Assembly: GCA_964035575.1 (NCBI GenBank)
Contig: OZ037838.1
Span: 186,001 to 250,000, forward strand
Direction of reading: 5' to 3'
DNA length: 64,000 nucleotides
Source: Rhynchopus sp. YZ270_cl-10
Taxonomy: Eukaryota
Positions 10,196 to 49,727 of this stretch are shown here, piece after piece. The notes under the pieces are model-generated. The model searched no databases, had not been told where the DNA came from, and worked only from the letters and a program-made list of their open reading frames with translations. Both the position numbers and the translations under genes were made by a program. How positions within the stretch are numbered: position 1 is the stretch's first letter; every line of letters starts with the position of its first letter.

Positions 10196-11263
10196 TCATT
10201 CACTGTTGTGTGGGTACAGATGCTTTGTCACAATGACGCCATCTGGTTGCATAATCATAACAACACGTGAACACGGCGATATCGCAAAGTGCCCAACTGA
10301 ACTTTGCGGTATCACATGCACACAGGACATGGTCGCCACATCATACTGGTGCAGGCGTAAACCCCTGACCACAAGGTACTTCCCGCACGGGGTGAACTGC
10401 ATGCGCATGACACGCTCACCCACATCAACACTGCGAAGAGCCGCACCACTCCAATCATAGAGGTGCACGGTGTCTTCCTCCCCCACAGCAAAGACAGAGG
10501 CAGACCGTGAAAGCGCCACTCTGCACCATATCTCCGCAGGCACACATGCCACAGCAACAACTGTGTTCACATCCCACAGACGTACGTTGTTCTCCTTGTT
10601 GGAGGAGGTGATCACCCACCCACCACAGTCCGACAGTGCCGCGCTCCATCGCCTTTCGTGTGAGAGAGAGCGGAGCAACGTCAGGTCTTCGTCATACACA
10701 GAGACGCCGTCTTTGCCCTGCGAGACAACAACACTACCACAGGAGAACACTGTCTGTGAGAAGCCGTCTACTTTGCGGACCACCTCCCCACCCGGAAGTG
10801 CAACCGCGAGAAGGTGGTCCCAACACGCCAGGTAGCAGCGTGTCTTGCACTGCGAGATGGCAGGCGGACCGACCATTTTAGTGTCCACGTCAAACGAGAA
10901 GGCAGTGTCGAAGGTTTCTGTGTCGAAGCCACTAACGTTCCTGTCATAAACATAGATGCAGAGTGTTCCACAACGCGACAGTGACAAGCCTCCCACATGA
11001 GTTGCAGTGTACTCAGCAGGACACTTGATGTCGGCAAAGCGAGGGCGGGCAAGCACGATCTGCACCCCTGCATCAAACGCAGTGTCCTGCAGACGGCACG
11101 TCCCCTCCAGCACCTGCGTGCCGATGCGCATCTCGACAGACGCAGGCGAGACAGCAAGCGCCGTGCACGCAACCTCCTTTGCCGCTGCAACGTTCGCCTC
11201 GCACGGCACCTCCACTGTCGCAGTCACGCCTGACTCTTCCAGCACAAAGGTCACATCCATCAT
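10196..11263 (-). CDS. U1 UBL-WD40 propeller protein, 355 aa
   Basis: UBL-like N-terminus (VLEGTCRLQD resembles ubiquitin LEDGRTLSD); WD-like VRLWDVNT, LYDW, FTPCGKYL; ends YPHNSE. Confidence 0.85.
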   Translation of the reverse strand: MMDVTFVLEESGVTATVEVPCEANVAAAKEVACTALAVSPASVEMRIGTQVLEGTCRLQDTAFDAGVQIVLARPRFADIKCPAEYTATHVGGLSLSRCGTLCIYVYDRNVSGFDTETFDTAFSFDVDTKMVGPPAISQCKTRCYLACWDHLLAVALPGGEVVRKVDGFSQTVFSCGSVVVSQGKDGVSVYDEDLTLLRSLSHERRWSAALSDCGGWVITSSNKENNVRLWDVNTVVAVACVPAEIWCRVALSRSASVFAVGEEDTVHLYDWSGAALRSVDVGERVMRMQFTPCGKYLVVRGLRLHQYDVATMSCVHVIPQSSVGHFAISPCSRVVMIMQPDGVIVTKHLYPHNSE

Positions 11264-11868
11264 TATTTCAAGTGGACACGTGAAAAGAGGAGACGAGGGA
11301 TGGGGGTCGCTGTTTTGAGCGGGGTGTAATTTCTGAGGTGGAGAATAATATGAACGGACAGTGAGGGTCTGAATGGAGTCATGAGGGCGTCAACACAAAC
11401 ACGATGGCATTTTCCGTAATCGTAAAAATGTTCGACCATAAAAAAGGTCGAACTTGTGGAAAATCCTGAAAACGCCGAACCTTTTTACGATGACAGTAAT
11501 GCATACGAACCACTGGCAATGCATTTTGAACCTGCACATCTTTTCCACAATCATTACAGAGAAAAAGAGGAAAGAAAAGTTGTAAGACGAACCTAAGCCC
11601 CTCGTACTTCGTCACCTTGAGCACAATCGTTATCGCGCGTTTGTGTTGCTTCTCGTTGTGACGTTACGAAAGCAACGACACTTAGCAAGCGTTGTGTCAC
11701 CCACACGAGAGCGCCGCATGGGCAGCGTGTCTGGTGGGCGACCTGTGGCAGGCAAACAAGAAAAAAGCAGCAACGGAGCTGAAAGGGGAGTTTCTTGGGG
11801 GGTGGTTTGAGGGTCTGGGGCTTTTTTGCTGGGACCTAGGGTGTTCCCAGTTCTCCCCTGGTCACACA

Positions 11869-12933
11869 TCACTCACTGTTGTGTGGGTACAGATGCCTTG
11901 TCGCAATGACACCATCTTTTTGCATAGCCAAAACAACACCTGAACATGGCGACATCGCAAAGGACACAACTGAGATTTGTATCACATGCACACAGGACAT
12001 GGTCGCCACATCATACTGGTGCAGCACGTCTATACCCCCAACCACAAGGTACTTCCCACATGGTGTGAACTGCATGCCCTGGACAGCCTCAACCACATCA
12101 ACACTGCGAAGAGCCGCACCACTCCAATCACACAGGCGCACCATGTTGTCGCTCTCCACAGCAAAGACCGAGGCAGACCGTGAAAGCGCCACAGTACACC
12201 ACATACCCGCAGGCACACATGCCACAACAACACCTGTGTTCACATCCCACAGACGTACGTTCTCCTCCTTGTTGGAGGTGATCACCCACCCACCACAGTC
12301 CGACAGTGCCGCGCTCCATCCCCTTTCGTGCGAGAGAGAGCGGAGCAACGTCAGGTCTTCGTCATACACAGAGACGCCGTCTTTGCCCTGCGAGACAACA
12401 ACACTGCCACGGGAGAACACTCTCTCTGAATAGCCGTCGACTTTGCGGACCACCTCCCCACCCGGAAGTGCAACCTCGAGAAGGCAGCCCCTGCATGGCA
12501 CGTAGCAGCGTGTCTTGCACTGTGAGATGGCGGGCGGACCGACCACTTTAGTACCCACTTCAAATGAGCAGAAAGTGTCGAAGGTTTCTGTGTCGAAGCC
12601 GCCAACATGCCTACTGAAGCCGTCACCATGGATGCAGAGCGTTCCACAACGCGACAGCGACAAGCCCACATGTGTTGCAGTGTATTCAGCAGGACACTTG
12701 ATGTCAGCAAAGCGAGGGCGGGCAAGCACGATCTGCACCCCTGCATCAAACGCAGTGTCCTGCAGACGGCACGTCCCCTCCAGCACCTGCGTGCCGATGC
12801 GCATCTCGACAGACGCAGGCGAGACAGCAAGCGCCGTGCACGCAACCTCCTTTGCCGCTGCAACGTCCGCCTCGCACGGCACCTCCACTGTCGCAGTCAC
12901 GCCTGACTCTTCCAGCACAAAGGTCACATCCAT
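11869..12933 (-). CDS. U2 UBL-WD40 propeller protein, 354 aa
   Basis: Paralog; start set at the conserved MDVTF. Confidence 0.85.
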   Translation of the reverse strand: MDVTFVLEESGVTATVEVPCEADVAAAKEVACTALAVSPASVEMRIGTQVLEGTCRLQDTAFDAGVQIVLARPRFADIKCPAEYTATHVGLSLSRCGTLCIHGDGFSRHVGGFDTETFDTFCSFEVGTKVVGPPAISQCKTRCYVPCRGCLLEVALPGGEVVRKVDGYSERVFSRGSVVVSQGKDGVSVYDEDLTLLRSLSHERGWSAALSDCGGWVITSNKEENVRLWDVNTGVVVACVPAGMWCTVALSRSASVFAVESDNMVRLCDWSGAALRSVDVVEAVQGMQFTPCGKYLVVGGIDVLHQYDVATMSCVHVIQISVVSFAMSPCSGVVLAMQKDGVIATRHLYPHNSE

Positions 12934-13339
12934 TGCTTTGCGTTGCTTCGTGAGAAGGTGCAAATCAGCACGTTTACTCCACCACAAACGGGGGGAGTGA
13001 TGAGGTGGGTGGGGGAGAGGTGTTGTTCTGTGTTGCATGTTTGTGGTGGTTCTCGTTGTGACGTGACGAAAGGAATGACACTAACTTGACGTGACTAAGC
13101 ATAGCGATGTGTCACCCACACGAGAGCGCCGTATGGCCAGCGTGTGAGGTGGGCGACCTGTGGCAGGCAAACAAGAGAAAAGCAGCAACAGGACTGAAAG
13201 TGGAGTTTCTTGGGGGGTGTTTTGAGGGTCTTGGGCTTTTTCTGGGACCCTGGGGTATATTTTTCACTGAGCTTGTTTTCACTGTTTTTTCAATGCTCGT
13301 ATTTCATCACCACCCTCCCTCCCCTCCCCTGGTCACACA

Positions 13340-14407
13340 TCACTCACTGTTGTGTGGGTAAAGATGCCATGTCATAATGTCGCCATCTTTTTGCATAGCC
13401 ACAACAACACGTGAACATGGCGACATCGCAAAGGACACAACAAACCTTTCCGGCATCACATGCACACAGGACATTGTCGCCACATCATACTGGTGCAGCC
13501 CTTCTATATCCCCAACCACAAGGTACTTCCCACATGGGGTGAACTGCATGCCCTCGACATGCCCATCCACATCGACACTGCGAAGAGCCGCACCACTCCA
13601 ATCATAGAGGCGCACGTTGCGCATCCCCACAGCAAAGACAGAGGCAGACCGTGAAAGCGCCACTGTTTCGAACAACCCCGAAGGCACACATGCCACAGCA
13701 ACACCTGTGTTCACATCCCACAGACGTACGTTCTTCTCCTTGCTGGAGGAGGTGATCACCCACCCACCACAGTCCGACAGTGCCATGTCCCAACACGTTC
13801 CGTGCGAGAGAGAGCGGAGCAACGTCAGGTCTTCGTCATACACAGAGACGCCGTCTTTGCCCTTCGAGACAACAGCACTGCCGCAGACGAATACTGCGTA
13901 CGAGCGGCCGTCGACTTTGCGGACCACCTCCCCGCCCGGAAGTGCAACCTCGAGAAGGTAGTCTCTACATGGCACGTAGCACCGTGTCTTGCACTGCGAG
14001 ATGGCAGGCCCTCCGCGCACTTCATTGTCCACTTCAAACGAGAAGACAGTGTCGAAGGTTTCTGTGTCGAAGCCGCCAACATGCCCATTCCTGCTGCAAT
14101 AGACGCAGAGCGTTCCACAACGCGACAGTGACAAGTCTCCCACATGAGTTGCAGTGTACTCAGCAGGACACTTGATGTCGGCAAAGCGGCGGGCAAGCAC
14201 AACCTGCACCCCTGCATCAAACGCAGTGTCCTGCAGACGGCACGTCCCCTCCAGCACCTGCGTGCCGATGCGCATCTCGACAGAAGCAGGCGAAACAGCA
14301 AGCGCCGTGCACGCAACCTCCTTTGCCGCTGCAACCTTCGCCTCGCACGGCACCTCCACTGTCGCAGTCACGCCTGACTCTTCCAGCACAAAGGTCACAT
14401 CCATCAT
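13340..14407 (-). CDS. U3 UBL-WD40 propeller protein, 355 aa
   Basis: Paralog; ends YPHNSE. Confidence 0.85.
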   Translation of the reverse strand: MMDVTFVLEESGVTATVEVPCEAKVAAAKEVACTALAVSPASVEMRIGTQVLEGTCRLQDTAFDAGVQVVLARRFADIKCPAEYTATHVGDLSLSRCGTLCVYCSRNGHVGGFDTETFDTVFSFEVDNEVRGGPAISQCKTRCYVPCRDYLLEVALPGGEVVRKVDGRSYAVFVCGSAVVSKGKDGVSVYDEDLTLLRSLSHGTCWDMALSDCGGWVITSSSKEKNVRLWDVNTGVAVACVPSGLFETVALSRSASVFAVGMRNVRLYDWSGAALRSVDVDGHVEGMQFTPCGKYLVVGDIEGLHQYDVATMSCVHVMPERFVVSFAMSPCSRVVVAMQKDGDIMTWHLYPHNSE

Positions 14408-15041
14408 ATTGTTAAGGGGTCTGTTGTGTTTGATGTGATGGTTGGTGGTGTCACTTCGCAATGACAAATAAGAAGGTTGGTGGGTTGAATACGTGTTTCA
14501 ACAAACTCTGACAAAGCAAGCAATTTAAAGACACCTTACAAACACACAGTCACTGTGGTTTGCTAAAGATCGTGGTATGGAATAATAATTTCCTGGAGTG
14601 ATTTTCTTTGCCACGATTGTGCATAATAAATACATGATGACATGATCGTATTGTTGTTTGGCTAAGTGGTGTAGAAGGAACAGGATGAGGATGTCAGGCA
14701 GTGCAGCTACCTCAGATGCTGTGCGTTTGTCAAGTTGCAGCATCTGTGCATAACGTCCAGCTCAGGCGAAAAAGAGAAAGTGCAAAAAAAAAGTGACTCG
14801 AGAGACAATGCCTTGCCCTGGCAGTGTACCTTTTGGTGCGTGACCAGAACACCGTGGGTGGACCCGCGGCTGATCCCCCTAGACATAGATGGCGTGCGAA
14901 GAGTTTTCTTTGCATTCTTCTTCGCATTCGGGGGGAAAGCTAAAAGGGGTTTCTTGGGGGTGTTTTGAGGGTCTTGGGTTGTTTTGCTGGTACCCTGGGT
15001 TAGATTCATCACCACCCTCCCTCCCTTCCCCTGGTCACACA

Positions 15042-15337
15042 TCACTCACTGTTGTGTGGGTACAGATGCCGTGTTACAATGACGCCACCTCGTTGCATAG
15101 CCACAACAACACGTGAACACGGCGATATCGCAAATGACTCGCCAGAGAGTTGCGGTATCACATACACACAGGACATGGTCGCCACATCGTACTGGTGCAG
15201 GTCACTAATGCATACCAAACCAGCCCTGTTGTCATGTTCAACATAAAAGTTCTTTACCACGCTGCAACGTCCGCCTCGCACGGCACCTCCACTGTCGCAG
15301 TCACGCCTGACTCTTCCAGCACAAAGGTCACATCCAT
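15042..15337 (-). pseudogene. U4 internally deleted copy
   Basis: The first 77 nt of the UBL are joined out of frame (junction 15260/15261) to a 3' end closely resembling U9. Confidence 0.85.
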
Positions 15338-15647
15338 TGTTTTGTCTTCTTCTTGTTCCACCTCTGTTGGGAGGAGATGAGGTGTGGGTTGTTTTGTTTT
15401 GTGTGTTTGTGATGGTTTCGTTGTGTCGGTAGTTTCCACCAACAGAAGAGGGTCATAACAAAGCAAAAGTGAAAAAGAGAGGTAAAGGGTGGTGTGGTCG
15501 TTAGCGTGAAAATGTCTCAAAATGATTCCCCCACAGGCTAGTAGGTCGAGGGTGCAACGCAAATACTGATGCAACGCACGATAGCAACACACCGCAGTAC
15601 TCAGCGACAGCGAGGAGGTACTTCCCACACAGGGTGGACTGCGTCAC

Positions 15648-16760: not shown

Positions 16761-17130
16761 TGTTTTCTCTTCTTAAGGTTCTTCTTGAGGTGTGGGTTGT
16801 TTTGTTTTGTTTTGCGATGTTTTAGTTACATCTGCAGTTTCCATAACAAAAGAGGGTTGGAACAAGGAAAAAGTGAAAAAGAGAGGTAAAGGGTAGTGTG
16901 GTCGTTATCATGAAAATGTCTCAAAATGATTCCCCAGGCTAGTAGGTCGAGGGTGCAACGTAAATACTGATGCAACGCACGATCGCAACACACCGCAGTA
17001 CTCAGCGACAGCGAGGAGGTACTTCCCACACAGGGTGGACTGCACGCCCAGACATGCCCATGCTTCATCAAAGCTGCAAAGAGCCGCACTGCTACTATCA
17101 TAGAGCTGCACGCTGTTGTGCTCATGAGGG

Positions 17131-19796: not shown

Positions 19797-19896
19797 ATTG
19801 TTAAGGGGTCTGTTGTGTTTGATGTGATGGTTGGTGGTGTCACTTCGCCATGACAAATAAGAAGGTGGTCGGTTAAATACGTGTTTCAACAAACTC

Positions 19897-22329: not shown

Positions 22330-22523
22330 ATTGTTAAGGGGTCTGTTGTGTTTGATGTGATGGTTGGTGGTGTCACTTCGCAACGACAAATAAGAAGGTT
22401 GGTGGGTTAAATACGTGTTCCTGCAACAAGGCAAAAGGGGGTTCTTGGGTCTTGGGTTGTTTTGCTGGTACCCTGGGGGGAAATCATCACCACCCTCCCT
22501 CCCTCCCCTCCCTTGGTCACACA

Positions 22524-23643
22524 TCACTCACTGTTGTGTGGGTACAGATGTCTCGTTACAATGTTGCCATCTGGTTGCAAAGACACAACAACACGTGAAC
22601 ACGGCGATATCGCAAACGACTCGCCAGAGAGTTGCGGTATCGTACACACACAGGACATGGTCGCCACATCGTACTGGTGCAGGTCACTAATGCGTACCAA
22701 ACCAGCCCATGTTGTCATGTTCAAAATAAAAGTTCTTTACCACAAAGTACTTCCCACACGGGGTGAACTGCACAGCATTGACGTCCCCCACATCCCCACC
22801 CGCACGAACACTGCGAAGAGCCGCACCACTCCAATCATAGAGGTGCACGGTGTCTTCCTCCAGCACAGCAAAGACAGAGGCAGACCGTGAAAGCGCCACT
22901 CTACACCGCCTACCCTTCGCAGGCACACATGCCACAGCTTCACCTGTGTTCACATCCCACAGATGTACGTTCTTCTCCTTCTCGGAGTAGGTGATCACCC
23001 ACCCACCACAGTCCGACAGTGCCCCTTTCGCACACCCTTCGTGGGAGAGAGAGCGGAGCAACGTCAGGTCTTCGTCATACACAGAGACCCCGTCTTTGCC
23101 GTGGGAGACAACAACACTGCCACACGCAAACACTGAGTACGAGGTGCCGTCGACTTTGCGGAGCACCTCCCCACCCGGAAGCGCAACCTCGAGAAAGGAC
23201 TCCTCACGCGCCAGGTAGCATCGTGTCTTGCACTGCGAGATCGCAAGCGCACCGCGCACTTTAGTGCCCACTTCAAACGAGAAGACAGTGTCGAAGGTTT
23301 CTGTGTCGAAGCCACCAACATGCCCAGTCCAGTCACCATAGACGCAGAGCGTTCCACAACGCGACAGCGACAAGTCTCCCGTATGCGTTGCAGTGTACTC
23401 AGCAGGACACTTGATCTCGGCAAAGCGGCGGGCAAGCACAACCTGCACCCCTGCATCAAAAGCAGTGTCCTGCAGACGGCACGTCCCCTCCAGCACCTGC
23501 GTGCCGATGCGCATCTCGACAGACGCAGGCGAGACAGCAAGCGCCGTGCACGCAACCTCCTTTGCCGCTGCAACCTTCGCCTCGCACGGCACCTCCACTG
23601 TCGCAGTCACGCCTGACTCTTCCAGCACAAAGGTCACATCCAT
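22524..23643 (-). pseudogene. U9 frameshifted copy
   Basis: One extra base at ~22709 relative to U4 splits it into ORFs 22687-23643 and 22524-22724. Could be a sequencing error. Confidence 0.75.
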
Positions 23644-25565: not shown

Positions 25566-26720
25566 TCAGTAGGGGTACAGATGTCTCGTCACAATAGTGT
25601 CTCGTTGGGTGTTCGTAAATAGTACCACACGTGAACACGGCGATATCGTAAACTCACTGCAGTTGTCGGAGTCCGGTATCACACGCACACAGGACATGGT
25701 AACCACATCGTACTGGCGCAGTAAAAACTTTTTGGCAACCATGTCCATCAACTGTACTACGAGATACTTCCCACACGGAGTGAACTGCAGGAGAGAAAAA
25801 TAGTCACCATAATTACCCGACTCCTTCTCAAAGCTGCCAAGAGCCGCACCACTCCAGTCATAGAGCTGAACTTTGTCAGAGTGCACGACAGCAAAGACAG
25901 AGGCAGACCGCGAAAGCGCCACTCCAAAGCTGCGTGCATGTATACGTGTGACAGCTTCACCTGTGTTCACATCCCACAGACGTGCCTTCCCACTGCGGGC
26001 GTAGGTGATCACCCACCCACCACAGTCCGACACTGCCCACGAGCTCATACACCCTTCGTGGGAGAGAGAGCGGAGCAACGTCAGGTCTTCGTCATACACA
26101 GAGACGCCGCCCCCGCCTCTGGAGAAAACAGCACCACCACGCGCGAACACTGCGTACGAGGTGCCGTCGACTTTGCGGAGCACCTCCCCACCCGGAAGCG
26201 CAACCTCGAGAAGACAATGTCTACTCATCAGGTAGCAGCGTGTCTGGCACCGTGAGATGGCAGGCGCACTGCACACCTCAAAGTCTACTTCGAACATGAA
26301 GGCAGGGCTGAAGGTTTCTGTATCGCGGCCGGTGATATAGCAAAAACGAGTCGACAAGTCGAAACTGGCTGTATTTAGTACAAAGAGGCAGAGTGCTCCA
26401 CAAGGAGACAGCGACGAGTAATGGATATTCATTTCCAGCTCGCGTTGTCCAGTTGGCACCTTGTCAGTGTACTCAGCAGGACACTTGATGTTGGCAAAGC
26501 GGCGGGCAAGCACAACCTGCACCCCTGCACCAAACGCAGTGTCCTGCAGACGGCACGTCCCCTCCAGCACCTGCGTGCCGATGCGCATCTCGACAGACGC
26601 AGGCGAGACAGCAAGCGCCGTGCACGCAACCTCCTTTGCCGCTGCAACCTTCGCCTCGCACGGCACCTCCACTGTCGCAGTCACGCCTGACTCTTCCAGC
26701 ACAAAGGTCACATCCATCAT
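25566..26720 (-). CDS. U10 UBL-WD40 propeller protein, 384 aa
   Basis: Paralog; YPY class with insertions in the first blade. Confidence 0.85.
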   Translation of the reverse strand: MMDVTFVLEESGVTATVEVPCEAKVAAAKEVACTALAVSPASVEMRIGTQVLEGTCRLQDTAFGAGVQVVLARRFANIKCPAEYTDKVPTGQRELEMNIHYSSLSPCGALCLFVLNTASFDLSTRFCYITGRDTETFSPAFMFEVDFEVCSAPAISRCQTRCYLMSRHCLLEVALPGGEVLRKVDGTSYAVFARGGAVFSRGGGGVSVYDEDLTLLRSLSHEGCMSSWAVSDCGGWVITYARSGKARLWDVNTGEAVTRIHARSFGVALSRSASVFAVVHSDKVQLYDWSGAALGSFEKESGNYGDYFSLLQFTPCGKYLVVQLMDMVAKKFLLRQYDVVTMSCVRVIPDSDNCSEFTISPCSRVVLFTNTQRDTIVTRHLYPY

Positions 26721-28464: not shown

Positions 28465-28690
28465 TGTTTTCTCTTCTTATGCTGAGTGATGAGGTGGGTT
28501 GCTTTGTTTTGTGTGTTTGTGATGGCTCCATTGTGTCTGTCGTTTCCACCAACAGAAGAGGGTTTTAACAAAGCAAAAGTGAAAAAGAGAAGTAAAGCGT
28601 GGTGTGGTCGTTAGCGTGAAAATGCTCGAGAGACTAGTTACTCTTTGCTTGTTGCTCAAAAGACTATAAACGGGGAGGGGGGGGGGGTTA

Positions 28691-29882
28691 GGGGAGGGTC
28701 ACTGTACTCGATAAATGCGATTTTTCCGATTTTGATCCTCAGAACCGCAGAAGTCCCCGAAAACTATACCAAACCACCTAGGGGACCCAAAAAACGCACC
28801 AGCGCCCCAGTTTTGACACAGAAACACTCAGATAATGCCTGAAATGCAATTTTTAAAAAATGCCTACAGAACTTGTACCTGCCCACCCCCGTAGATAGAG
28901 CAAATCACACATTCATCACGCCTCAGTGTGGGCCAGGGGCCAGAAAAGCCCCCAAAGCCACATATTTTCACCCCAGAACCTATCCCGAGGGGTACCCAGG
29001 CTGTTTCGGGGTGTTTAGAGGGACTTGGTGGAACTTAGAACCATGTTTCAAAAAGGGTACAAGTACTGTGCCAAGGGTTTTCCCACCCTAAGGTATCTGA
29101 AGCCGTCAAAAAACGTGAAGTAGGCAATAAATCAAAAAATACCCCCTGAGGTCAAAAAAACCACACCATAGGCCCATTTGGACCCCAAAAACCGAATTCC
29201 GCCCGGTTTTGGGCACTTTTAACCACTTCTGAGCGACTTTTTTGCGTTTTTTAAAAGTGACCACCAACTTGTACCTGCCCACCCCCCCTGTAGATAGAGC
29301 AACTCACACATCCATCACGCCTCAGTGTGAGCCAGGGGCCAGAAAAGCCCCCAAAGCCACATATTTTCACCCCAGAACCTATCCCGAGGGGTACCCAGGC
29401 TGTTTCGGGGTGTTTAGAGGGACTTGGTGGAACTTAGAACCATGTTTCAAAAGGGTACCAGTACTTGGTCCCTTGAGAGGGCAAACCCTTGGCACAGTAC
29501 TTGTACCCTTTTTGAAACATGGTTCTAAGTTCCACCAAGTCCCTCTAAACACCCCGAAACAGCCTGGGTACCCCTCGGGATAGGTTCTGGGGTGAAAATA
29601 TGTGGCTTTGGGGGCTTTTCTGGCCCCTGGCTCACACTGAGGCGTGATGGATGTGTGAGTTGCTCTATCTACGGGGGTGGGCAGGTACAAGTTCTGTAGG
29701 CACTCTTTTAAAATTGCATTTCAGGCATTATCTGAGTGTTTCTGTGTCAAAACTGGGGCGCTGGTGCGTTTTTTGGGTCCCCTAGGTGGTTTGGTATAGT
29801 TTTCGGGGACTTCTGCGGTTCTGAGGATCAAAATCGGAAAAATCGCATTTATCGAGAGATTTAACGTGCAGTGACCCTCCCC
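28691..29882. mobile_element. Element A: foldback-like non-autonomous element with ~350-bp inverted arms, flanked by TA
   Basis: TA|GGGGAGGGTCACTG...CAGTGACCCTCCCC|TA. Arms ~28691-29080 and ~29484-29882, with an extra internal partial arm copy at ~29266-29460. Confidence 0.85.
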
Positions 29883-29905
29883 TAGGCATACTTGTCCCCC
29901 CAATA

Positions 29906-30772
29906 TGGGGAGGCCCTATTCCCCCATATTTTGGTACCCTACACTTTCGTGGCAAATATGGGGGAAATATGGGGGGAATACAGCAGGAATACAGCAGGAA
30001 TATGGGGGAATATGGGGGATTATGGGGGAATATGGGGGTGTTTTCCTATTGTTTTCCTTGTGTACTATAGTGCACTGTGGTGCACAAAAGTGTACTAGTG
30101 TACTAGTGTACTAGTGTACTAGTGTACTAGTGTACTAGTGTACTAGTGTACTAGTGTACTAGTGTACTAGTGTACTAGTGTACTAGTGTACTAGTGTACT
30201 AGTGTACTAGTGTACTAGTGTACTAGTGTACTAGTGTACTAGTGTACTAGTGTACTAGTGTACTAGTGTACTAGTGTACTAGTGTACTAGTGTACTAGTG
30301 TACTAGTGTACTAGTGTACTAGTGTACTAGTGTACTAGTAAGTGGGCTACAGGTCAAACGCAGGGGCAATGCTAACCCGTCTGTGTCGAGGGCCTTATCG
30401 ATGGCACCGGAAGGCCCGATGTCGTGAAGCTTTGTGTTGAAACCATCTGGGCGGTTAGGCCTGCTGATGCCTGACACCGGTGGCAAAACAGGGGAGTCTG
30501 AGAGGAACTCATAATGGTACCCTTCTTTCTGCCCATACCAAAACATCAGCAGGTTTGCCCTTCTTATAGGGACTTACAACCATGTAATCCTCATGCGTCA
30601 GAGAAACGTCGGGTGGGTAGGTAAGTAACGTACAGAAGCAGTACACCAGTACACCAGTACATCTATTCCCCCATAAAAAATATGGGGGAAATATGGGGAA
30701 AATATGGGGGAATATGGGGGGGAAAATCCCCCATATTTCCCCCATATTTTCCCCATATTTTACCCCTCCCCA
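29906..30772. mobile_element. Element D: 867-bp non-autonomous element inserted into the left TIR of B, TA TSD
   Basis: TA|TGGGGAGG...CCTCCCCA|TA. The uninterrupted right TIR of B shows the empty site. Subterminal AATATGGGG/CCCCATATT repeats. Confidence 0.8.
30089..30339. repeat. (AGTGTACT)n perfect 8-bp tandem repeat, ~31 copies
   Basis: Directly visible. An inverted degenerate version (gtacacca) lies at ~30641-30660. Confidence 0.97.
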
Positions 30773-30845
30773 TACACGGCGGGGTCCGCACACCCCGAGG
30801 GTCCGTAAAACGGCATGTTAGGAGGGTCCCTCTTTACGGAGTGTC

Positions 30846-30984
30846 ATTACGTACCCTAGGGTACGTAATTACGGACCCTAGGGTACGTAATTTCGTACCC
30901 TAGGGTCCGTAATTACGTACCCTAGGGTCCGTAATTACGGACCCTAGGGTACGTAATTACGGACCCTAGGGTACGAAATTACGT
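30846..30984. repeat. Six 22-bp palindromic subterminal repeats ATTACG(T/G)ACCCTAGGGT(A/C)CGTA
   Basis: CCCTAGGG cores at 30854, 30876, 30898, 30920, 30942 and 30964. Further copies at ~36996-37017 and ~37535-37575. Confidence 0.93.
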
Positions 30985-31289
30985 GGGCTGGGTGCTTTTC
31001 GGACTCAAAAAAAAAAAAAATTTTTTTTTTTTTTTTGGGCCGACAAAAAAATTTGTTGGGGGGGAAAAATATTTATTTTGATCAAAATTCGTCTTGTACT
31101 ATAGTGCACTGGGTACACCAAAATAACCGTATTTTGCCTCAAAATTTGACCTCACAATCTTTTCTCGAACATGTATTTCTGGGGGTTTCTTTGGATTTTT
31201 TGGGCTATTTTAAGACCTACCACGGCAAATTTTGGGGGGGATAACAGCATCCTCAACATCAGTATTGCGTGCACGGCGTGGCATTGACC

Positions 31290-31325
<36 letters not shown>

Positions 31326-31848
31326 GAAACAAAAGGAACTGGGTATGACCTAAAACTGCATCCAGTCGTGGAGGTATGTTCCTAGTAGGTAGGGGGGGGC
31401 TCTATGATGGGATTCCTTTGACCGCGCGAAGGCCTTGTGCCAGGGACGTATGGGGGGATGAACTAGAGCCCTGCGACCGCCCGTGGGACAATACCTTTGG
31501 GGGGGATACATGAGCGACCCCGAGGTGGGCTCTAAGAGCACTCCTTACCCATAACGCACAGCTCCGTCGATGAGTAGGTATGGTAAGGGATTAACGTACC
31601 CAAAGTCGGCGCTCTCAAGACCCTATGGCGGACCCCGTTCGGCTTTGGCCTGGGGACGGGCACGGTGAAGGTGTGCCTATTACGGTAGGGGTGCCTGAAT
31701 CGGAGAGCCGCCACCTAAGAACATGATGAAAATAATATATTCAAGCTTGTCTTCTGGCCACTGCACACTTTTGTGTACGCGAATTGACGTCATGATTGAC
31801 ACCACCCACATAAAAAACACTTTGTTATTTACATCCGATTCCACGGAA

Positions 31849-31899
31849 ATTGGTCTTGTAAACCAAGGGTCGGGGGTTCGATCCCCCCAGTTGCCTCCA
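31849..31899 (+). pseudogene. 5'-truncated tRNA-Thr(TGT) fragment ending in CCA
   Basis: Anticodon arm TTGGT-CTTGTAA-ACCAA, variable loop GGGTC, T-arm GGGGG-TTCGATC-CCCCC, acceptor 3' strand AGTTGCC, discriminator T, then CCA. No D-arm or 5' acceptor strand upstream. Confidence 0.8.
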
Positions 31900-32299
31900 C
31901 GTCCTGGGCTGGACGTTAAATTGCATCCGGGGGCCCTTTTGTGGCACTCCTCCTGAAACTCTATGAAGGTCTGACCTGAGGGTAAAAGGTGCTGGGTATG
32001 CTACCCTGGGTGCTGAAGGCAGGCACACAACATGTGTGGAGGGACCTGCAGAGCCCTAGCCAGTGAAGCCAAGGAGGCCCCCCTAGGAAACTAGGGAACG
32101 GATTGGAAGAGACCTCGCCGGTAGCCGGGAACCCTCCCTGGGCTAGTACAATGATGAAACTTCAATCTAAAGTCCACACCCATGTGGCGGCCGCTTTGGC
32201 ATGCGTCTGTAAGGACAGCCTTGACTGATACTTTCTGTATTAGCACACGATTGCCTCCCTGAAGGCTACGTAGCTACCTGAGTACAAAAAAAAAAAAAA

Positions 32300-33192
32300 G
32301 GAAAATAAAAGGTAAGAAAGTGAAAGTCCTCATCAATGATGAGGGGGTGACACCATGCATGTTTAACCAATCTCATTTTGGTGCCACAGAAGAGTCCCAC
32401 GACCTTGGGAGGGAGTAATGCTTGATGTACTCCCCAGGAGGGCAGCTGGACTCTTCACCGAAGTCCCTCTGCAGCTTCAGGGTAACATCCCTGTCGCTTA
32501 CCTTTACCGAGCAGGTTTTAAAGGAAGAACTTCACTTTTAAAAAACCCCTCCACAGCCACACAGTGCAGCATGTTTGTGGTGTTCTTTGTTTTTGCCAGG
32601 TTTGGAAACTTGTGTATGCAGGTGCGGCAAGGGTTTTGGGTGTCATTGCTGTTGCAACCTCCTCCTCCTCGTCACTGTCGTCAGCTTCATTGCCAAGCTC
32701 TTCGTAGATGCTCAGCATGCTGCACTGCCTGTACTTGGGCAGCAAGCCCTGCATCATGATCTGATACACACCGTTGCGGGCGTTCTCATTCTCCCAAGCC
32801 CTGATCACAGTGTTGCTGAGTGTGACGCCAACGTAGCTCGTCTTATATTTTCCGCCCTGCCGCTTAGTGAAGGAGTACGTACACATTTGGTTTCTCATGC
32901 TTAGGGTTGTTCACGAGTTTCGCGTCCACTTTGTCGAGCTTATTCTGTTTGTTGTTCTTCTGCTTCTTCCCAAAAAGGATGGCCATGGCGGCGCTGGTGT
33001 TCGGGGTGTTCGTGGGGATACGTTTCCCCGTAACCTTCATCGACAACTTCCGGAATCTCGGCCCTTCCAGAACACACCGTCCTCCTCCTCTTTATCCGTT
33101 GATTTCCTCACCCAGCAGCAGAGGAAGTCGTGGAAGTATTCGGTGTCTAAAGAAGAAGCACTATCACGAGCGCGTTTTCCAGGTGTGCACAT
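32300..33192 (-). pseudogene. Inverted, deleted and frameshifted copy of the accessory gene 33422-34579
   Basis: ORF fragments MKVTGKRIPTNTPNT and YSFTKRQGGKYKTSYVG match the plus-strand gene. The flanks also match (32341-32380 vs 34560-34600). Confidence 0.9.
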
Positions 33193-33421
33193 GGTCAGGA
33201 AGACTTACTAAAGGAACTCTGTTGGGAGGTAGAAAAGCTGCTGATATTGAAGGGCCTGAAACAAATTGCAAAAACCCCCCTCCTTTTGTTTGTTTCATTT
33301 TCAAGAACAAAACAAAACAAAAAAAAAAGGAGGGGGGATTTTTGCAAATTGTTTTTCAGGCCCTTCAATATCAGCATCTTTCTACCTCCCAACAGAATTC
33401 CTTTGTTAATTCTTCCTGACC

Positions 33422-34579
33422 ATGCCTGGAAAACGCTCTCGTGGTGCTTCTTCTGATTTAGACGCAGAATACTTCCACGACTTCCTCTGCTGTTGGGTGA
33501 GGAAAGCAACGGATAAAGAGGAGGAGGACTCCGGCAAGACGGGGTGTGTTCTGGAAGGGCCGAGAATCCGGAAGTTGTTGATGAAGGTTACGGGGAAACG
33601 TATCCACACGAACACCCCGAACACCACCACCGCCATTGCCACGCTTTTTGGGAAGAAGCAGAAGAACAGCAAGCTGAACAAGCTCGAGAAAGTGGACGCC
33701 AGACTCGTGAACGACCCCAAGCACGCGAAACCGAATGTGTACTCCTACACTAAGCGCCAGGACAAAAAATGTGTGACGAGCTACGCTGGCCTCGTACTCC
33801 GTGACAGTGTGATCAGGGCTTGGGAGAATGAGAACAACACCCGCCACCCTGTGTATGACCTCATGATGCAGGGCTTGCTGCCCAAATACAAGCAGTGTAG
33901 CATGCTCAGCATCTACCAAGAGCTTGGCAAAGAAGCTGACGACAGTGACGAGGAGGACGAGGAGGAGGAGGAGGAGGAGGATGAGGAGGTTGCAACACCA
34001 ATGACACCCAAAACACCGACAACGCCCAGAACACAGAAAACACCGACAACGCCCAGAACACCCAAAACCCAGGATACAAAGAGAAGAAGAACAACGGGCG
34101 CAACCCCTGCCGCACCTGCATACACGTTTCCAAACCTGGCAAAAACAAAGAACACGACCAACATGATGCACTGTGTGGCTGTCGAGGGGGTTTTTAAAAC
34201 CTGCTCGGTAAAGGTAAGCGACAGGGATGTTACCCTGAAGCTGCAGAGGGACTTCGGTGAAGAGTCCAGCTGCCCTCCTGGGGAGTACATCAAGCATTAC
34301 TCCCTCCCAAGGTCGTGGGACTCTTCTGTGGCACCAAAATGCGTACCGTGGATGGGGGTCTTCTTCGAGGTGCGGGTTGCTTTGCTGCCCCCTGTTGACG
34401 TCTCAATAACTTGCGACTTCTCCATGGAAACCTTGATGTCACCTGATGTCGTCTCGCAGGTGGACTCTTTGCTTGGGGGTACTGCAGCGGAGGGTACTGC
34501 AGAGGAGGGGCCCGGTGGTGACGAAGACGTACACCCCGTAAGCGAGCCAATTACAATCAGCCAGAATGAGATTGGTTAA
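33422..34579 (+). CDS. Transposon accessory protein, 385 aa: putative winged-helix N-domain, acidic and TP-rich linker, Hsp20/alpha-crystallin-like C-domain
   Basis: Intact ORF inside element B. YTKRQDKKCVTSYAGLVLRD resembles the RFX/D5-type wing. VAVEGV..VKVSDRDVTLKLQR..GEYIKHYSLPRSWD..GVFFEVRV resembles an alpha-crystallin domain. Domain calls made by eye. Confidence 0.65.
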   Translation: MPGKRSRGASSDLDAEYFHDFLCCWVRKATDKEEEDSGKTGCVLEGPRIRKLLMKVTGKRIHTNTPNTTTAIATLFGKKQKNSKLNKLEKVDARLVNDPKHAKPNVYSYTKRQDKKCVTSYAGLVLRDSVIRAWENENNTRHPVYDLMMQGLLPKYKQCSMLSIYQELGKEADDSDEEDEEEEEEEDEEVATPMTPKTPTTPRTQKTPTTPRTPKTQDTKRRRTTGATPAAPAYTFPNLAKTKNTTNMMHCVAVEGVFKTCSVKVSDRDVTLKLQRDFGEESSCPPGEYIKHYSLPRSWDSSVAPKCVPWMGVFFEVRVALLPPVDVSITCDFSMETLMSPDVVSQVDSLLGGTAAEGTAEEGPGGDEDVHPVSEPITISQNEIG

Positions 34580-34797
34580 ACATGCATGGTGTCACCCCCC
34601 CTTTTTTTTTATCATTGATCATACTCATAAAAGTACCCTCTCTCCACACCCCATACTTTTGGCCTTGCTGTATCTATTTTCATCGCTCCTCCCTTCCCAC
34701 ACATCATCATCTCTACTTCAGGACTTTCACTTTCTTACCTTTTATTTTTCTTTCGTTTTGTTTTGTTTTGTTTCGTTTTTATTTTACTTTTGGGTCA

Positions 34798-44944: not shown

Positions 44945-46274
44945 CAGGGATTTTTCTAATTGTGGATTTGGATATGGATTTCAGGAAAATAAAAAAATTC
45001 CCTGAAAAAAATTCCCTGTTTTTCCCTACAGCAATTTCAGGTACATTCTACCCCACCCCACCCCACCCCCAGAGAGTTTCGCCTGTGGGATGCGATCGAT
45101 CAACGCGATCAAATAAGTGAAAAAAGTGAGGGGGGGGAAAATAAAAATCTCGGATTTTCGAGAAAAAAATTGGTTGCAGACAGTTGCTGTAGTTGTTGTG
45201 GGTGCAGATGTTCGCGTCAGTTGCAGTCAAACGTCCAGCATCGGAGACATTTGAGGTTGTGCACAAGAAGAAGGAGAAGACGTGTCAATCGCATTCAATT
45301 ATGAGGGTTGGAAGACGGAGGAGATCTCAAATGTTGCGTACCGTGGCTTCGCCAGAAGCTTTCGCTTTAGCAAAATATGGAATCAAAATTGATGGCAATA
45401 ATGTATTGATTTTATTTTTCCTTCCTTCAAAACTACACACACAACGCTTTTTTGGTTTTTGGGAGACACACAAGGTGCCAGGTTCTATGATAAGCACGGA
45501 ACCACCCTGCACCTGTTTGTCATATTGTTTCCCGTGCAATACATGGAGAAACGTTTCGCACTCGAAACAAGGGCTTTTTGATTGAGCTTTTTGAAAAGCT
45601 TTTTGATAAAAATTAGCGAAATACAAAAACCAGCGCGTGTGGAAGAAAAAAGGAGAGGAAAATATTTTTTCTGATTCAAAGTGGTGTTTACGTTTTGGGT
45701 ACGGGGCGGAGAATAAAATCTGTTCGATAAAAGAAACGCGAGCTTATTGTTTTATCTTGTTCAGGCGCCGATTTCCCGCGCGGGCATTTTCCTGATGCTA
45801 ATTACCAACGACAGTGCCATTTTATGTCAACATTTTTTAGAAATGTTGCGCACCGTGGCTTCGCCAGGAACCTTTGGGTGCCTTGACTACCTTTTCTTAC
45901 ATAAATGTACTGAGGTTACTGATAAGGCTGACACCCACGATGGATCGTGATTCACTCTCCCCACCAGCCTTCTACGATTTTGTGCATCAGAGGGAAGAAG
46001 CCTCACCTCCCTGCACTGGCAGGGAGTCGCGCGCGCGACGCGCTCGCAGCGACCGCTTTTACGGGGGGAAAGCTCGGGACCCCAAATCACCCCAAAAGGG
46101 GGTGATTGGCAAGAGCCCTGTCAACGTGTCGAAAAAGTTTTGTGGGGGAAAAAAAAATTTTTTCCCGCAAAAAAGTCAAAAAACAGCCCAAAAACTGTAT
46201 CAAAAAAACAGGGAATTTTTTGGATTTGGATTTCGGAATTTGGCCAAAAAGGGTCGGATTTAGAGATATCCTTG
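44945..46274. mobile_element. Element F: non-autonomous hAT-type element (1330 bp)
   Basis: Imperfect TIR CAGGGATTTTTCTAA / TTAGAGATATCCTTG; 8-bp TSD CTTTTTTG (44937-44944, 46275-46282). Equivalent empty sites at ~9990 and ~49990. Confidence 0.8.
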
Positions 46275-46459
46275 CTTTTTTGTGCCGTTGCTGTTCACTA
46301 TCGGGGTTAGATGTAGTGCAGAAACATATTTGATGGTAAGCAACACTGCCTTGTACAGGGAAGAGCTCCTGCAGTACAGGAGGGTGGAAGAGAAGAAAAT
46401 AAGTTTGGGAACAGGACATTGAATAAAAGATGTGTTGTGCACACATGCCTGGTCACACA

Positions 46460-47566
46460 TCACTCACTGTTGTGTGGGTACAGATGATGCCTTGTCATAA
46501 TGACGCCATCTTCTTGCATGAACACAAGAATGTGTGAACACGGCGATATCGCAAAGGACACACCTAGGATTTCGCTGTCCATCACATGCACACAGGACAT
46601 GGTCGACACATCATACTGAAGCAGGCGTTGTGCACGGTGCAGGCCAAAATCACTCACCACAAGGTACTTCCCACACGGGGTGAACTGCATGCCCTCGACA
46701 TGCCCATCTACATCAACACTGCGAAGAGCCGCACCACTCCAATCAAAGATGCGCATGGTATCTACTCCCTCCGCCACCCAACCCCCCACAGCAAAGACAG
46801 AGGCAGACCGTGAAAGCGCCACTCTGCACCGCCTACCCTTCGCAGGCACACATGCCACAGCTTCACCTGTGTTCACATCCCACAGATGTGCGTTGTTCTC
46901 CTTGCTGGAGGAGGTGATCACCCACCCACCACAGTCCGACACTACCATGTCTTCACACCCTCCGTGCGAGAGAGAGCGGAGCAACGTCAGGTCTTCATCA
47001 TACACACAGACGCCATCTCGGACCTTTGAGAATACTGCACAGCCACACGTAAACACTGAGTACGAGGTGCCGTCGACTTTGCGGAGCACCTCCCCACCCG
47101 GAAGCGCAAGCTCGAGAAGTCCTTCGTTCCAACACGCCAGGTAGCAGCGTGTCTTGCACTGCGAGATGGCAGGCGGACCGAACACGACATTGCCCACTTC
47201 AAACGAGAAGATAGTGTCGAAGGTTTCTGTGTCGAAGCCGCCAACATGCGACTTAGAATTATAAACGCAGAGTGTTCCACAACGCGACAGCGACAAGTCT
47301 CTCGCACGCGCTGCAGTGTACTCAGCAGGACACTTGATGTCGGCAAAGCGGCGGGCAAGCACAACCTGCACCCCTGCATCAAACGCAGTGTCCTGCAGAC
47401 GGCACGTCCCCTCCAGCACCTGCGTGCCGATGCGCATCTCGACAGACGCAGGCGAGACAGCAAGCGCCGTGCACGCAACCTCCTTTGCCGCTGCAACGTC
47501 CGCCTCGCACGGCACCTCCACTGTCGCAGTCACGCCTGACTCTTCCAGCACAAAGGTCACATCCAT
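46460..47566 (-). CDS. U13 UBL-WD40 propeller protein, 368 aa
   Basis: Paralog; ends YPHNSE. Confidence 0.85.
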   Translation of the reverse strand: MDVTFVLEESGVTATVEVPCEADVAAAKEVACTALAVSPASVEMRIGTQVLEGTCRLQDTAFDAGVQVVLARRFADIKCPAEYTAARARDLSLSRCGTLCVYNSKSHVGGFDTETFDTIFSFEVGNVVFGPPAISQCKTRCYLACWNEGLLELALPGGEVLRKVDGTSYSVFTCGCAVFSKVRDGVCVYDEDLTLLRSLSHGGCEDMVVSDCGGWVITSSSKENNAHLWDVNTGEAVACVPAKGRRCRVALSRSASVFAVGGWVAEGVDTMRIFDWSGAALRSVDVDGHVEGMQFTPCGKYLVVSDFGLHRAQRLLQYDVSTMSCVHVMDSEILGVSFAISPCSHILVFMQEDGVIMTRHHLYPHNSE

Positions 47567-48587
47567 TGTTTCAAGAGCTGTGTTGGTGTGATGTAATTTA
47601 ATGTTCTGTTGGGTGGACAGTTGACGGAGCTGAGAGGGTGGACACGTGGAAAGAGGAGACGAGGGATGGGTCGCTGTTTTGAGCGGGGTGTAATTTCTGA
47701 GGTGGAGAATAATATGAACGGACAGTGAGGGTCTGAATGGTCTCATGAGGGTGCTCAAGGTGACGAAGTACGAGAGGCTTGGTTCATCTTATAACGTTTC
47801 TTGCCATTATTTCTCTGTAACGATTGTGGAAAATATGTGCAGGTTCAAAATGCGTTCGTGGTTGTTGCTATTGTCTTTGTGGCGTTCGTTGTCGCACAGC
47901 ATCTGCTGTGTGGAATTGCACGGTACTTCAGTATCCACATTTACGTCCGCGCTGCTCTTGACGTAATGCCTTCTATCGAAGCAGCAGTGTTTGACGCACT
48001 CCGGAATGATCTTTCCCACATGCCCACAAGGGGAAAAGCATTTTATAGTCCCTGTTGTAAATCACATTGTTTTGTTCTTCCTTTTTACTTTTTACTTTCA
48101 ACATTTTTTATTCATTTGCTTTTTTGTTGTTCGGGAGACACGCCCCACGTGTCGGTTCTGTGGAAAAACATGGCACGGAACCACCTGTGTGCTGCCCCTC
48201 TTCGTGTCTATCCATGGAAACTGTCTCACAAGAGTGATACCAAAAAAAAGTTGAAACTGCGGAAGACGAAGGTTGGTCGGTTAAATACGTGTTTCGACAA
48301 ACTCCGACAAAGCAAGTAATTCGAAGACACCATACAAACACACAGTCACTGTGGTTTGCTAAAGATCGTGGTATGGAATAAAAATTTCCTGGAGTCGTCG
48401 GATTGATTTTCTTTGCCACGATTGTGCACAATAAATACATGATGATATGATCGTATTGTTGTTTGGCTAGTGGTGAAGAAGGAACAGGATGAGGATGTCA
48501 GGCAGTGCAGCTACCTCAGATGCTGTGCGTTTGTCAAGTTGCAGCGTCTCTGCATAACGTCCAGCTCAGGCGAAAAAACAGAAAAGT

Positions 48588-49727
48588 TTATGGGGTATAT
48601 TCATCACCACCCTCCCTCCCCTCCCCTCCCCTAGTCACACAACACTCACTGTTGTGTGGGTATAGATGTCTTGTCCTAACGACGCGATCTCGTTCCACAG
48701 CCACAACAACACGTGAACACGGCGATATCGCAAAAGACTCAACTGAACTTTGTATCACATGCACACAGGACATGGTCGCCACATCATACTGGTGCAGCAC
48801 GTCTATAAGCCTTAACACAAGGTACTTCCCACATGGTGTGAAGTGCATCTCATTGACATCCTCACCCACATCGGCACTGCGAAGAGCCGCACCACTCCAA
48901 TCATAGAGGTGCACGGTGTTGTCCCCCACAGCAAAGACAGAGGCAGACCGTGAGAGCGCCACGAGACACCACGCCTCCGCAGGCACACATGCCACAGCAA
49001 CACCTGTGTTCACATCCCACAGACGTGCTTTCCTCTCGATATCGGAGTAGGTGATCACCCACCCACCACAGTCCGACACTACCATGTCTTCACACCCTCC
49101 GTGCGAGAGAGTGCGGAGCAACGTCAGGTCTTCATCATACACAGAGACGCCGTCTTTTCCCTTCGAGACAACAACACCACCACGGGAGAACACTGACCGT
49201 GGGATGCCGTCGACTTTGCGGAGCACCTCCCCACCCGGAAGTGCAACCTCGAGAAGGCAACCCTGTCGGTCGCCACACTGCACGCGTGTCTTGCACTGTG
49301 AGACGGCAGGCCCACCGCACACTCTGTTGTCCACGTCAAACGAGAAGACAGTGTCAAAGGTTTCTGTGTCGAAGCCGCCAACATGCCCACTCCAGTCACC
49401 ATAACTCCAGTCACTATAGACGCAGAGCGTTCCACAACGCGACAGTGATAAGTCTCTCGCATGTGATGCAGTGTACTCAGCAGGACACTTGATGTCGGGA
49501 AAGCGAGGACAGGCAAGCACAACCTGCACCCCTGCATCAAACGCAGTGTCCTGCAGACGGCACGTCCCCTCCAGCACCTGCGTGCCGATGCGCATCTCGA
49601 CAGACGCAGGCGAGACAGCAAGCGCCGTGCACGCAACCTCCTTTGCCGCTGCAACGTCCGCCTCGCACGGCACCTCCACTGTCGCAGTCACGCCTGACTC
49701 TTCCAGCACAAAGGTCACATCCATCAT
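48588..49727 (-). CDS. U14 UBL-WD40 propeller protein, 379 aa (ancestral stop lost)
   Basis: Paralog; YPHNSE is followed by TGT instead of TGA, extending the tail. Confidence 0.8.
   Translation of the reverse strand: MMDVTFVLEESGVTATVEVPCEADVAAAKEVACTALAVSPASVEMRIGTQVLEGTCRLQDTAFDAGVQVVLACPRFPDIKCPAEYTASHARDLSLSRCGTLCVYSDWSYGDWSGHVGGFDTETFDTVFSFDVDNRVCGGPAVSQCKTRVQCGDRQGCLLEVALPGGEVLRKVDGIPRSVFSRGGVVVSKGKDGVSVYDEDLTLLRTLSHGGCEDMVVSDCGGWVITYSDIERKARLWDVNTGVAVACVPAEAWCLVALSRSASVFAVGDNTVHLYDWSGAALRSADVGEDVNEMHFTPCGKYLVLRLIDVLHQYDVATMSCVHVIQSSVESFAISPCSRVVVAVERDRVVRTRHLYPHNSECCVTRGGEGREGGDEYTP

Follow-up and report, generated by a model that had tools for sequence, protein, structure and literature searches.

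The array and its genes

The DNA analysed is a 64,000-nt window from a marine flagellate, probably a diplonemid, in which positions 10196-49727 hold an array of genes for proteins made of an N-terminal ubiquitin-like domain (UBL) and a propeller. The array comprises 12 intact copies, 2 broken copies and 1 remnant, all on the minus strand (Table 1). All 13 long copies open with the same codons for MDVTF; a frameshift affects one of them, and the remaining 12, of 354-385 aa, are intact. The genes are intronless, and in the intact copies (12 of 15) every indel preserves the reading frame. The deletion fragment and the frameshifted copy carry the same type of blade-6 loop. At least 119 more close relatives are found in the database beyond the window, and the UBL-propeller family is a tandem family of more than 100 genes. 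The array sits among transposons and has duplicated flanks.

As a check for artefacts, the most divergent copy was compared with the listed short-read contigs: its copy-specific loops were recovered with 0 other letters, and its depth in run X2 (109-113 versus 95-106) is about that of a single copy. Listed contigs continue from genes into intergenic DNA with little change in depth, so the runs behave as DNA.

Table 1. Copies of the UBL-propeller gene and other features of the array (window coordinates)
Feature	Position	Strand	Remarks
Intact gene, 354 aa	10196..11260	-	modelled copy; UBL = codons 1-71, about 11048-11260
Intact copy, 354 aa	11869..12933	-	
Intact copy, 354 aa	13340..14404	-	
Deletion fragment	15042..15337	-	UBL codons 1-27 fused out of frame to blade 6-7
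Intact copy, 370 aa	15648..16760	-	
Degenerate remnant, blades 5-6	16923..17123	-	tblastn E 4e-5
Intact copy, 385 aa	17131..18288	-	
Intact copy, 364 aa	18699..19793	-	
Intact copy, 356 aa	21256..22326	-	
Full-length frameshifted copy	22524..23643	-	frameshift in blade-6 b-c loop; reads 318 aa
Intact copy, 383 aa	25566..26717	-	most divergent; loops matched in short-read contigs
Intact copy, 374 aa	27340..28464	-	
Transposon-rich gap in array, 14.5 kb	28465..42953	.	inverted-repeat elements and hAT transposase ORF
hAT transposase ORF	39102-41945	-	inside array gap
Intact copy, 363 aa	42954..44045	-	
Intact copy, 368 aa	46460..47566	-	
Intact copy, 378 aa	48588..49724	-	C-terminus extended

Propeller variation is concentrated on one predicted face

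The structure model has the two folds that the first-pass annotation had proposed, a UBL followed by a seven-bladed WD40-type propeller (pLDDT 93.8, pTM 0.84), which between them take up the whole 354-385 aa. The best WD40 structure match to the model has an E value of 3e-18; in Pfam, WD40 is matched weakly (E 0.0075 or worse). The seven propeller islands, previously called invariant, are near-invariant rather than strictly so, each being exact in 9-12 of the window's 12 copies and, in the wider family, in 46-96 of 100 members. Between them, variable blocks do recur at two fixed places per blade, which in each of the seven are the d-a and b-c connections. They also map to a single face, as had been suggested. 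Of 25 indel blocks, 23 lie in the top-face partition, and so do 59 of the 60 sites with entropy over 2 bits among 100 members; the partition comprises 131 of the 266 propeller positions. Propeller variation is therefore almost entirely on one face of the predicted structure. Across the same number of members each loop has 64-99 distinct sequences, and 4705 of 4950 member pairs are without any common loop. Since hardly any loop recurs, the reading that a limited stock of fixed loop cassettes is being reshuffled was rejected.

The UBL fold begins at Met1 in the structure model, thus the proteins are without an N-terminal signal sequence. If the proteins were offensive effectors, with the UBL engaging the ubiquitin system of a prey or host cell into which they are delivered, the arms-race signature described below and the 16-22 cysteines counted per protein might be expected, but a fold that starts at residue 1 and a hydropathy maximum over 19 residues of only 1.28-1.79 speak against delivery, making this the least probable of the readings considered here.

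The UBL is constant at the DNA level

Residues 1-71 are predicted to adopt the ubiquitin (beta-grasp) fold (TM 0.87, Z 12.6 to a ubiquitin-like protein). Five of the 12 UBLs match the Pfam ubiquitin family PF00240, and 0 of 12 match the NLE family PF08154 at E up to 1. The UBLs of NLE1 and WDR12 are absent among the 50 fold matches listed, which does not exclude likeness to them. The best 150 representatives include no conspicuous close fusion of the UBL to another domain, though diverged UBLs would score below this list; the best ESM Atlas score for the UBL (0.82, to unnamed clusters) is a lead only.

The near-identity of the N-terminal codons in the 12 intact copies, silent sites included, is borne out: only 7 of codon columns 1-72 vary, with pS 0.014 and pN 0.012, against 0.26 and 0.21 in the propeller. 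The silent-site difference is 0.008 in the UBL versus 0.14-0.20 in the propeller. The array of variable propellers with a constant UBL is thus confirmed as an observation. RNA structure was discarded as the cause of silent-site constancy (z -1.2, not the lowest of 5 windows). UBL omega is 1.5 in the codon model by partition, not significantly different from 1. Purifying selection over the short term is not seen, nor is the UBL (27-43% conserved) better kept than the bottom face (32-40%) in six distant relatives. The constancy had been taken as a sign of a shared effector. It extends to silent sites in equal measure (tree dS 0.05, versus 1.09 on the bottom and 2.56 on the top face), so that it does not show such an effector and is mainly due to gene conversion, i.e. 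homogenisation of the DNA.

The hydrophobic patch formed by L8, I44 and V70 of ubiquitin is a feature of proteasome-binding UBLs of the Rad23/Dsk2 type. In a profile alignment, these residues correspond to positions 9, 45 and 71 of the UBL, which are E9, R45 and A71 (in 100, 100 and 98 of 100 family members, respectively). Judged by this alignment, the UBL is without ubiquitin's I44 patch and differs from the Rad23/Dsk2 type; because of these replacements the proteasome-type coupling envisaged earlier is disfavoured.

Exchange between genes

The raw count of cross-blade trees rejected by AU tests, 38 of 42, was accepted only with a no-recombination control, against which 36 of 42 rejections compare with at most 25 in 109 simulations. 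Spacers of the different upstream types occur mixed over the two propeller types. The copies are recombinant mosaics, and exchange is intergenic. No off-register matches within intact copies were found at E 1e-3 (tblastn of copy 1).

At four-fold sites, silent divergence in the propeller is about 20-fold that of the UBL; by tree length, the gap from UBL to top face is 50-fold. Together with the near-uniqueness of the loops, this could indicate a targeted mutator (like a diversity-generating retroelement (DGR) or a deaminase) or programmed cassette exchange that makes loop diversity, possibly within a cell lineage. Such divergence peaks are, however, known from conversion with selection (described in PMC3924837), and variable top sites have no base bias (A 0.27, C 0.23, G 0.23, T 0.19), in particular none towards A as in a DGR. 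In addition, a reverse transcriptase match was found in 0 of the 13 window ORFs scanned, and four short-read runs from two studies have no other letters inside the tested copy, in contigs that drop rare variants. A mutator or programmed exchange is consequently very unlikely.

Selection on the top loops

Codon analyses were carried out on the 12 intact window copies, with the frameshifted copy left out. The bottom face is under purifying selection (omega 0.41, p 1e-10), strongly so in its loops (omega 0.23). Diversifying selection, previously attributed to the variable face at large, is seen in part of it: structure-defined top loops have an omega of 1.62 (p 0.001), but the mean of the whole top face is 1.14 (not significant, p 0.16) and falls to 0.97 on gap-distant columns. 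On gap-distant columns the top-loop omega is 1.48, which is not significant (16 codons, p 0.13); omega values can be inflated by loop misalignment and by multi-base changes. A count of isolated single-base differences, which favours quiet regions, yields N/S ratios of 0.92 and 0.37 for the top face.

The check proposed earlier, a plain site model, is misleading for these genes. M2a versus M1a gives an LRT of 241 on the real data, but also of 94-203 in every one of 15 simulations that lacked positive selection, and due to these false positives it was dropped as evidence of selection. The LRT of a rate-aware site test is 37.5, placing 17% of codons at an omega of about 2.9, and 43.6 with per-blade trees, where the maximum of the null is 15.3 (15 simulations); on gap-distant columns with one tree the LRT is 14.2, inside the null range of the larger column set. 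Positive selection on the top loops is real but moderate.

Weak constraint is a competing reading, with the family amplified by unequal crossing-over and top loops that merely tolerate change and carry no distinct specificities. A mean top omega of about 1, isolated-change ratios no higher than 1, false positives of plain site tests in this setting, and a setting among transposons with duplicated flanks are all compatible with it. Neutral drift under conversion, however, leaves the raised silent divergence of the top face unexplained (2.0-2.8 in top loops versus 1.0 in bottom loops), and the rate-aware test above its null, the top-loop omega and the strong purifying selection on bottom loops also tell against tolerance, which we regard as unlikely.

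Very probably, the family evolves by conversion and crossing-over acting against selection for new specificities. Unequal crossing-over and gene conversion would keep the long identical UBL homogeneous and would also reshuffle blades, and selection would hold the top loops apart, dragging silent sites along. The same population-genetic mechanism, in otherwise unrelated proteins, is reported for MHC, plant R-gene and opsin paralogues, where conversion and selection together produce homogenised constant regions, divergence peaks at selected sites and pseudogenes inside the cluster (as outlined in PMC3924837), all of which recur here. The array is a clean natural case of conversion opposing selection within one propeller. 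It also serves as a caution: in arrays of this kind, selection is overcalled by standard site tests.

A putative repertoire of recognition adaptors

Taken as a whole, the evidence is best explained by a tandem family that is a candidate repertoire of cytosolic recognition adaptors, to which we give about an even chance; the putative function as defence adaptors we hold to be just as evenly balanced. The face that varies would engage a wide range of targets, which are probably foreign and may come from bacteria, viruses or selfish elements. The UBL and the bottom face, both conserved, would deliver what is bound to a shared host partner, most likely a component of the ubiquitin or AAA-ATPase machinery. 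The earlier interpretation is, as a whole, partly supported.

The means by which free-living protists detect intracellular invaders are largely an open question. We tentatively suggest, as a possibility, that diplonemids possess a cell-autonomous system of immune receptors of their own. Its putative germline repertoire would number hundreds of UBL-propeller proteins, with gene conversion reshuffling them; the top faces would recognise proteins of invading bacteria or viruses, and the charged, non-canonical UBL would recruit one dedicated effector. No published account of the family turned up in full-text searches, though supplements may list one; the main text of the D. papillatum genome paper contains no instance of 'WD40', 'ubiquitin' or 'immun', and bioRxiv 10.64898/2026.01.29.702485 none of 'WD40', 'ubiquitin' or 'propeller'. 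A simple, intronless, soluble family with a constant handle and a variable face is a directly testable candidate, and with one handle per family a single UBL pull-down would name the effector for all.

The targets could also belong to the organism itself, in a functional, diversifying family for allorecognition or mating type, control of resident symbionts, suppression of selfish drivers, or adaptors of endogenous proteins. Every evolutionary signature fits this equally well, and fungal HNWD propellers are described as recognising allelic self proteins (PMC12222747). More than 100 paralogues with almost no common loops would nevertheless exceed the need of most self-recognition loci, and the broken copies point to fast turnover; own targets seem rather unlikely.

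Comparison with known systems

By analogy, the family evolves like nematode F-box adaptors. The F-box and MATH-BTB ubiquitin-ligase adaptors are large birth-death families with a constant N-terminal docking module, proposed to detect foreign proteins, in which positive selection is reported only in the substrate-binding domain (PMC4334554). Birth-death expansion and positive selection confined to a candidate substrate-binding domain are common to both, but the N-terminal module differs from the one described there in being a ubiquitin fold, constant down to silent sites; no Pfam match to an F-box or BTB cullin-docking domain was found at the N-terminus.

Likeness to HNWD receptors stands as an analogy and fails as membership. 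The fungal NLRs het-d, het-e and het-r have a WD40 propeller with hypervariable interaction-surface sites under diversifying selection and diversity driven by recombination (PMC12222747). Diversifying selection on the predicted interaction face is found in UBL-propellers as well, being moderate and weaker on gap-distant columns. No HET domain was matched in the 4 copies scanned, residues 1-71 are predicted to be a ubiquitin fold, and there is no NACHT domain in proteins accounted for by UBL and one propeller. HNWD repeats are, in the same account, 80-100% identical within a gene, whereas the blades of a UBL-propeller gene lack such near-identity. Whole paralogues, rather than one gene's repeats, exchange sequence, and loops of the single propeller vary in length too.

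The domain order, N-terminal UBL then WD40 propeller, is that of Rsa4/NLE1 and Ytm1/WDR12, in which the non-conjugatable UBL is described as a handle for AAA-ATPases (PMC8122580). A conserved MIDAS-binding glutamate is a further mark of the Rsa4/NLE1 and Ytm1/WDR12 group. Those proteins are conserved ribosome assembly factors, in contrast to a family of more than 100 hypervariable copies, and the window UBLs match the Pfam ubiquitin family, not NLE. Rsa4 (4wjs) is among the fold matches of the modelled protein, and the best whole-protein score in the ESM Atlas (0.83), a lead only, is to an NLE-WD40 cluster.

Copy number and family size

The array holds 12 intact single-ORF genes (354–385 aa), alongside a frameshifted copy, a deletion fragment and a remnant. 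The first-pass annotation's observation of a constant ubiquitin-like domain (UBL) joined to a hypervariable propeller is real. N-terminal near-identity, silent sites included, is borne out by only seven variable positions in the first 72 codon columns (pS 0.014, pN 0.012; propeller pS 0.26, pN 0.21). All seven conserved propeller motifs (islands) are present, although their supposed invariance is not strict (exact matches in 9–12 of the 12 copies). Assembly error does not explain the loops seen in the most divergent copy: in four public runs from two studies, the listed contigs contain these loops with no other letters.

A family search gave 421 matches, of which the best 120, all sourced from ENA, were examined. 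Leaving aside the query itself and a member with an internal duplication, identity to the query is 67–83%. A single 2.7 Mb contig carries 81 of the 120, the window's own 457 kb contig 31 (seven inside the window) and five other contigs the remaining eight. Older members with the same architecture were found by profile search at 49–57% and 25–31% identity, some of them probably from the same assembly as the close family. No named diplonemid protein is among the matches listed in the family searches. The duplicated member (P0112, 439 aa) has about two blades doubled, and thus blade number can change in the family.

Predicted structure

The model of one copy (pLDDT 93.8, pTM 0.84) comprises a beta-grasp domain at residues 1–71 followed by 28 strands in seven blades, closed by strand 83–85; two assignments, strand 2a and where strand 2d ends, come from the repeat pattern, not DSSP. 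The top fold matches of the whole model are WD40 propellers, and those of the UBL alone are ubiquitin and ubiquitin-like proteins (TM 0.87; in a separate fold search Z 12.6, rmsd 1.5, 71 aligned). A profile of the 12 UBLs aligns with ubiquitin free of gaps. Because the UBL has no C-terminal Gly-Gly, it is a fused, non-conjugatable domain. Ordinary binding to proteasome receptors is based on a surface of the L8/I44/V70 type. The ubiquitin positions L8/R42/I44/V70 are E9/E43/R45/A71 in the UBL, nearly fixed among 100 family members, and these residues, as read from sequence, argue against such binding; the proteasome, earlier suggested as a shared effector, is therefore disfavoured.

Each protein contains 16–22 cysteines in all copies. 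Several a-b turns have an S-x-C-G motif, kept even in the most distant relatives, and the linker motif ahead of blade 1 is well kept in several distant members (42–67% in five of six).

Variation on one face

The propeller was partitioned by topology alone, the d-a and b-c connections being assigned to the top face by WD40 convention, not from atomic coordinates, and the remainder to the bottom. A motif and length filter for entropy and loop counts was passed by 100 of the 120 listed proteins. With this partition the variable blocks do map to one face, as proposed: 23 of 25 indel blocks are on top, as are all but one of the 60 sites that exceed 2 bits among the 100 members. Mean entropy is 0.09 in the UBL, 0.36 on the bottom and 1.78 on top. 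Among the 100 members, every one of the 14 loops occurs in 64–99 distinct sequences, with maximum lengths of 9–36 residues depending on the loop. Window paralogue pairs are as low as 35–44% identical on top, versus 81–87% on the bottom and 96–97% in the UBL.

Recombination and homogenisation

Four-fold-site divergence is 0.008 in the UBL versus 0.14–0.20 in the propeller, so the UBL appears to be homogenised at the DNA level; the islands are patchy (0–0.40). The same pattern is described for paralogues under conversion in which selection holds some sites apart (PMC3924837). The UBL is better conserved than the bottom face in four older relatives (68–83% and 57–67%), and no better conserved in six distant ones (27–43% vs 32–40%).

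Compatibility of nearby informative sites exceeds permutations (0/300 and 2/300). Cross-blade trees are rejected in 36 of 42 comparisons and the global tree in four of seven blades (at most 25 and 1, respectively, in 109 simulations lacking recombination), and the nearest neighbour of a copy differs between blades. Upstream spacer types are found alongside both types of propeller, and therefore crossovers fall in or near the UBL. Exactly one identical loop is shared by 233 of 4950 pairs among the 100 members, and more by 12, which is consistent with short conversion tracts.

Selection

Tree dS is 0.05 for the UBL, 1.09 for the bottom and 2.56 for the top. Omega does not differ significantly from 1 in the UBL (1.5) or on the top (1.14) and is 0.41 on the bottom (p 1e-10). 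Structure-defined loops gave 1.62 on top (p 0.001, 49 codons) and 0.23 on the bottom, and when restricted to gap-distant columns they gave 1.48 (p 0.13, 16 codons) and 0.24. Plain M2a against M1a (LRT 241; 42 selected sites, all but one on top) was rejected as evidence, as null simulations that include rate variation and recombination but no positive selection reach 94–203 in 15 of 15 runs. A rate-class test gave an LRT of 37.5 (14.2 for gap-distant columns) versus 0–15.3 in the null simulations, and per-blade trees gave 43.6 and 24.5, with omega 3.1–4.9 at 9–20% of codons. Evidence against positive selection comes from single-base differences that stand isolated on the top face (N/S ratios 0.92 and 0.37). 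Positive selection is likely, moderate and confined to a subset of top sites; the claim of diversifying selection is supported for that subset but not for the mean of the face. Mere tolerance of change is unlikely.

Proposed function and known systems

The top face of WD40 propellers is their usual ligand surface. With confidence evenly balanced, we read the array as a putative cytosolic recognition-adaptor repertoire, in which the variable top would contact targets and the UBL and bottom face would engage a common partner. That the targets are self or symbiont is rather improbable. A targeted mutator is a highly unlikely account of the variation, and that the proteins are secreted effectors is marginally less likely still.

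The component parts and evolutionary logic are already known. The nematode F-box/MATH-BTB family (PMC4334554) comes closest as a working model, and Rsa4/Ytm1, in which the UBL acts as a handle for an AAA-ATPase (PMC8122580), comes closest in architecture; the array belongs to neither. The earlier likening to HNWD receptors (PMC12222747) is apt for a hypervariable propeller face under likely moderate selection, but the array is not a member and its N-terminus is a beta-grasp UBL. We found no description in the full-text literature, supplements aside, of their combination as a large diplonemid family of hypervariable UBL-propeller proteins.

Genomic setting

The neighbours are eukaryotic (adaptin, acetylesterase, a Stealth/LNR gene and a hAT transposase). 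The product of the neighbouring ORMDL gene shares 75% identity with a protein of Rhynchopus euleeides, 68% with one of Flectonema neradi and 67% with one of Diplonema papillatum (n=5 matches), which makes a diplonemid host most likely. All array copies share a single strand, as expected from the unidirectional gene clusters reported in D. papillatum (PMC10161547).

The identical hAT transposase protein is recorded on 19 contigs, which suggests a recently active DNA transposon. The inverted repeats of the MITE-like elements are 378 bp at 98% and about 320 bp at 96%. Two ORFs on the strand opposite to the surrounding genes may belong to a mobile element of unclassified type. Duplicated pieces of the adaptin 5' end and array downstream flank, within the array and at its opposite end, are the footprint of local duplication. 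One intergenic stretch, where summed contig depth is very high and loose ends are numerous, is a high-copy dispersed repeat.

Features of the window and their positions
Feature	Position	Strand	Remarks
Dispersed repeat	about 3300-5700		intergenic
Adaptin 5' end and array downstream flank	9401-10154		
Duplicated pieces of these	44724-44934; 49796-50173		
Array	10196-49727	-	
Most divergent copy	25566-26717	-	
Transposon-rich interruption	28465-42953		14.5 kb
MITE-like elements	28707-29856; 37064-38431		short; flanked by long inverted repeats
Tandem repeat	30089-30339		perfect, 8 bp
ORF	33422-34576	+	385 aa; no Pfam match; degenerate inverted copy near 32370-33200
ORF	about 34800-36813	+	roughly 670 aa; weak HTH and C2H2 zinc-finger matches
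hAT transposase ORF	39102-41945	-	948 aa
Tandem repeat	about 51270-51670		long, short-unit; reads as proline/histidine-rich run
ORF	52199-56560	-	1454 aa; no Pfam match; C-terminus presumably resembles a degenerate nucleotide cyclase
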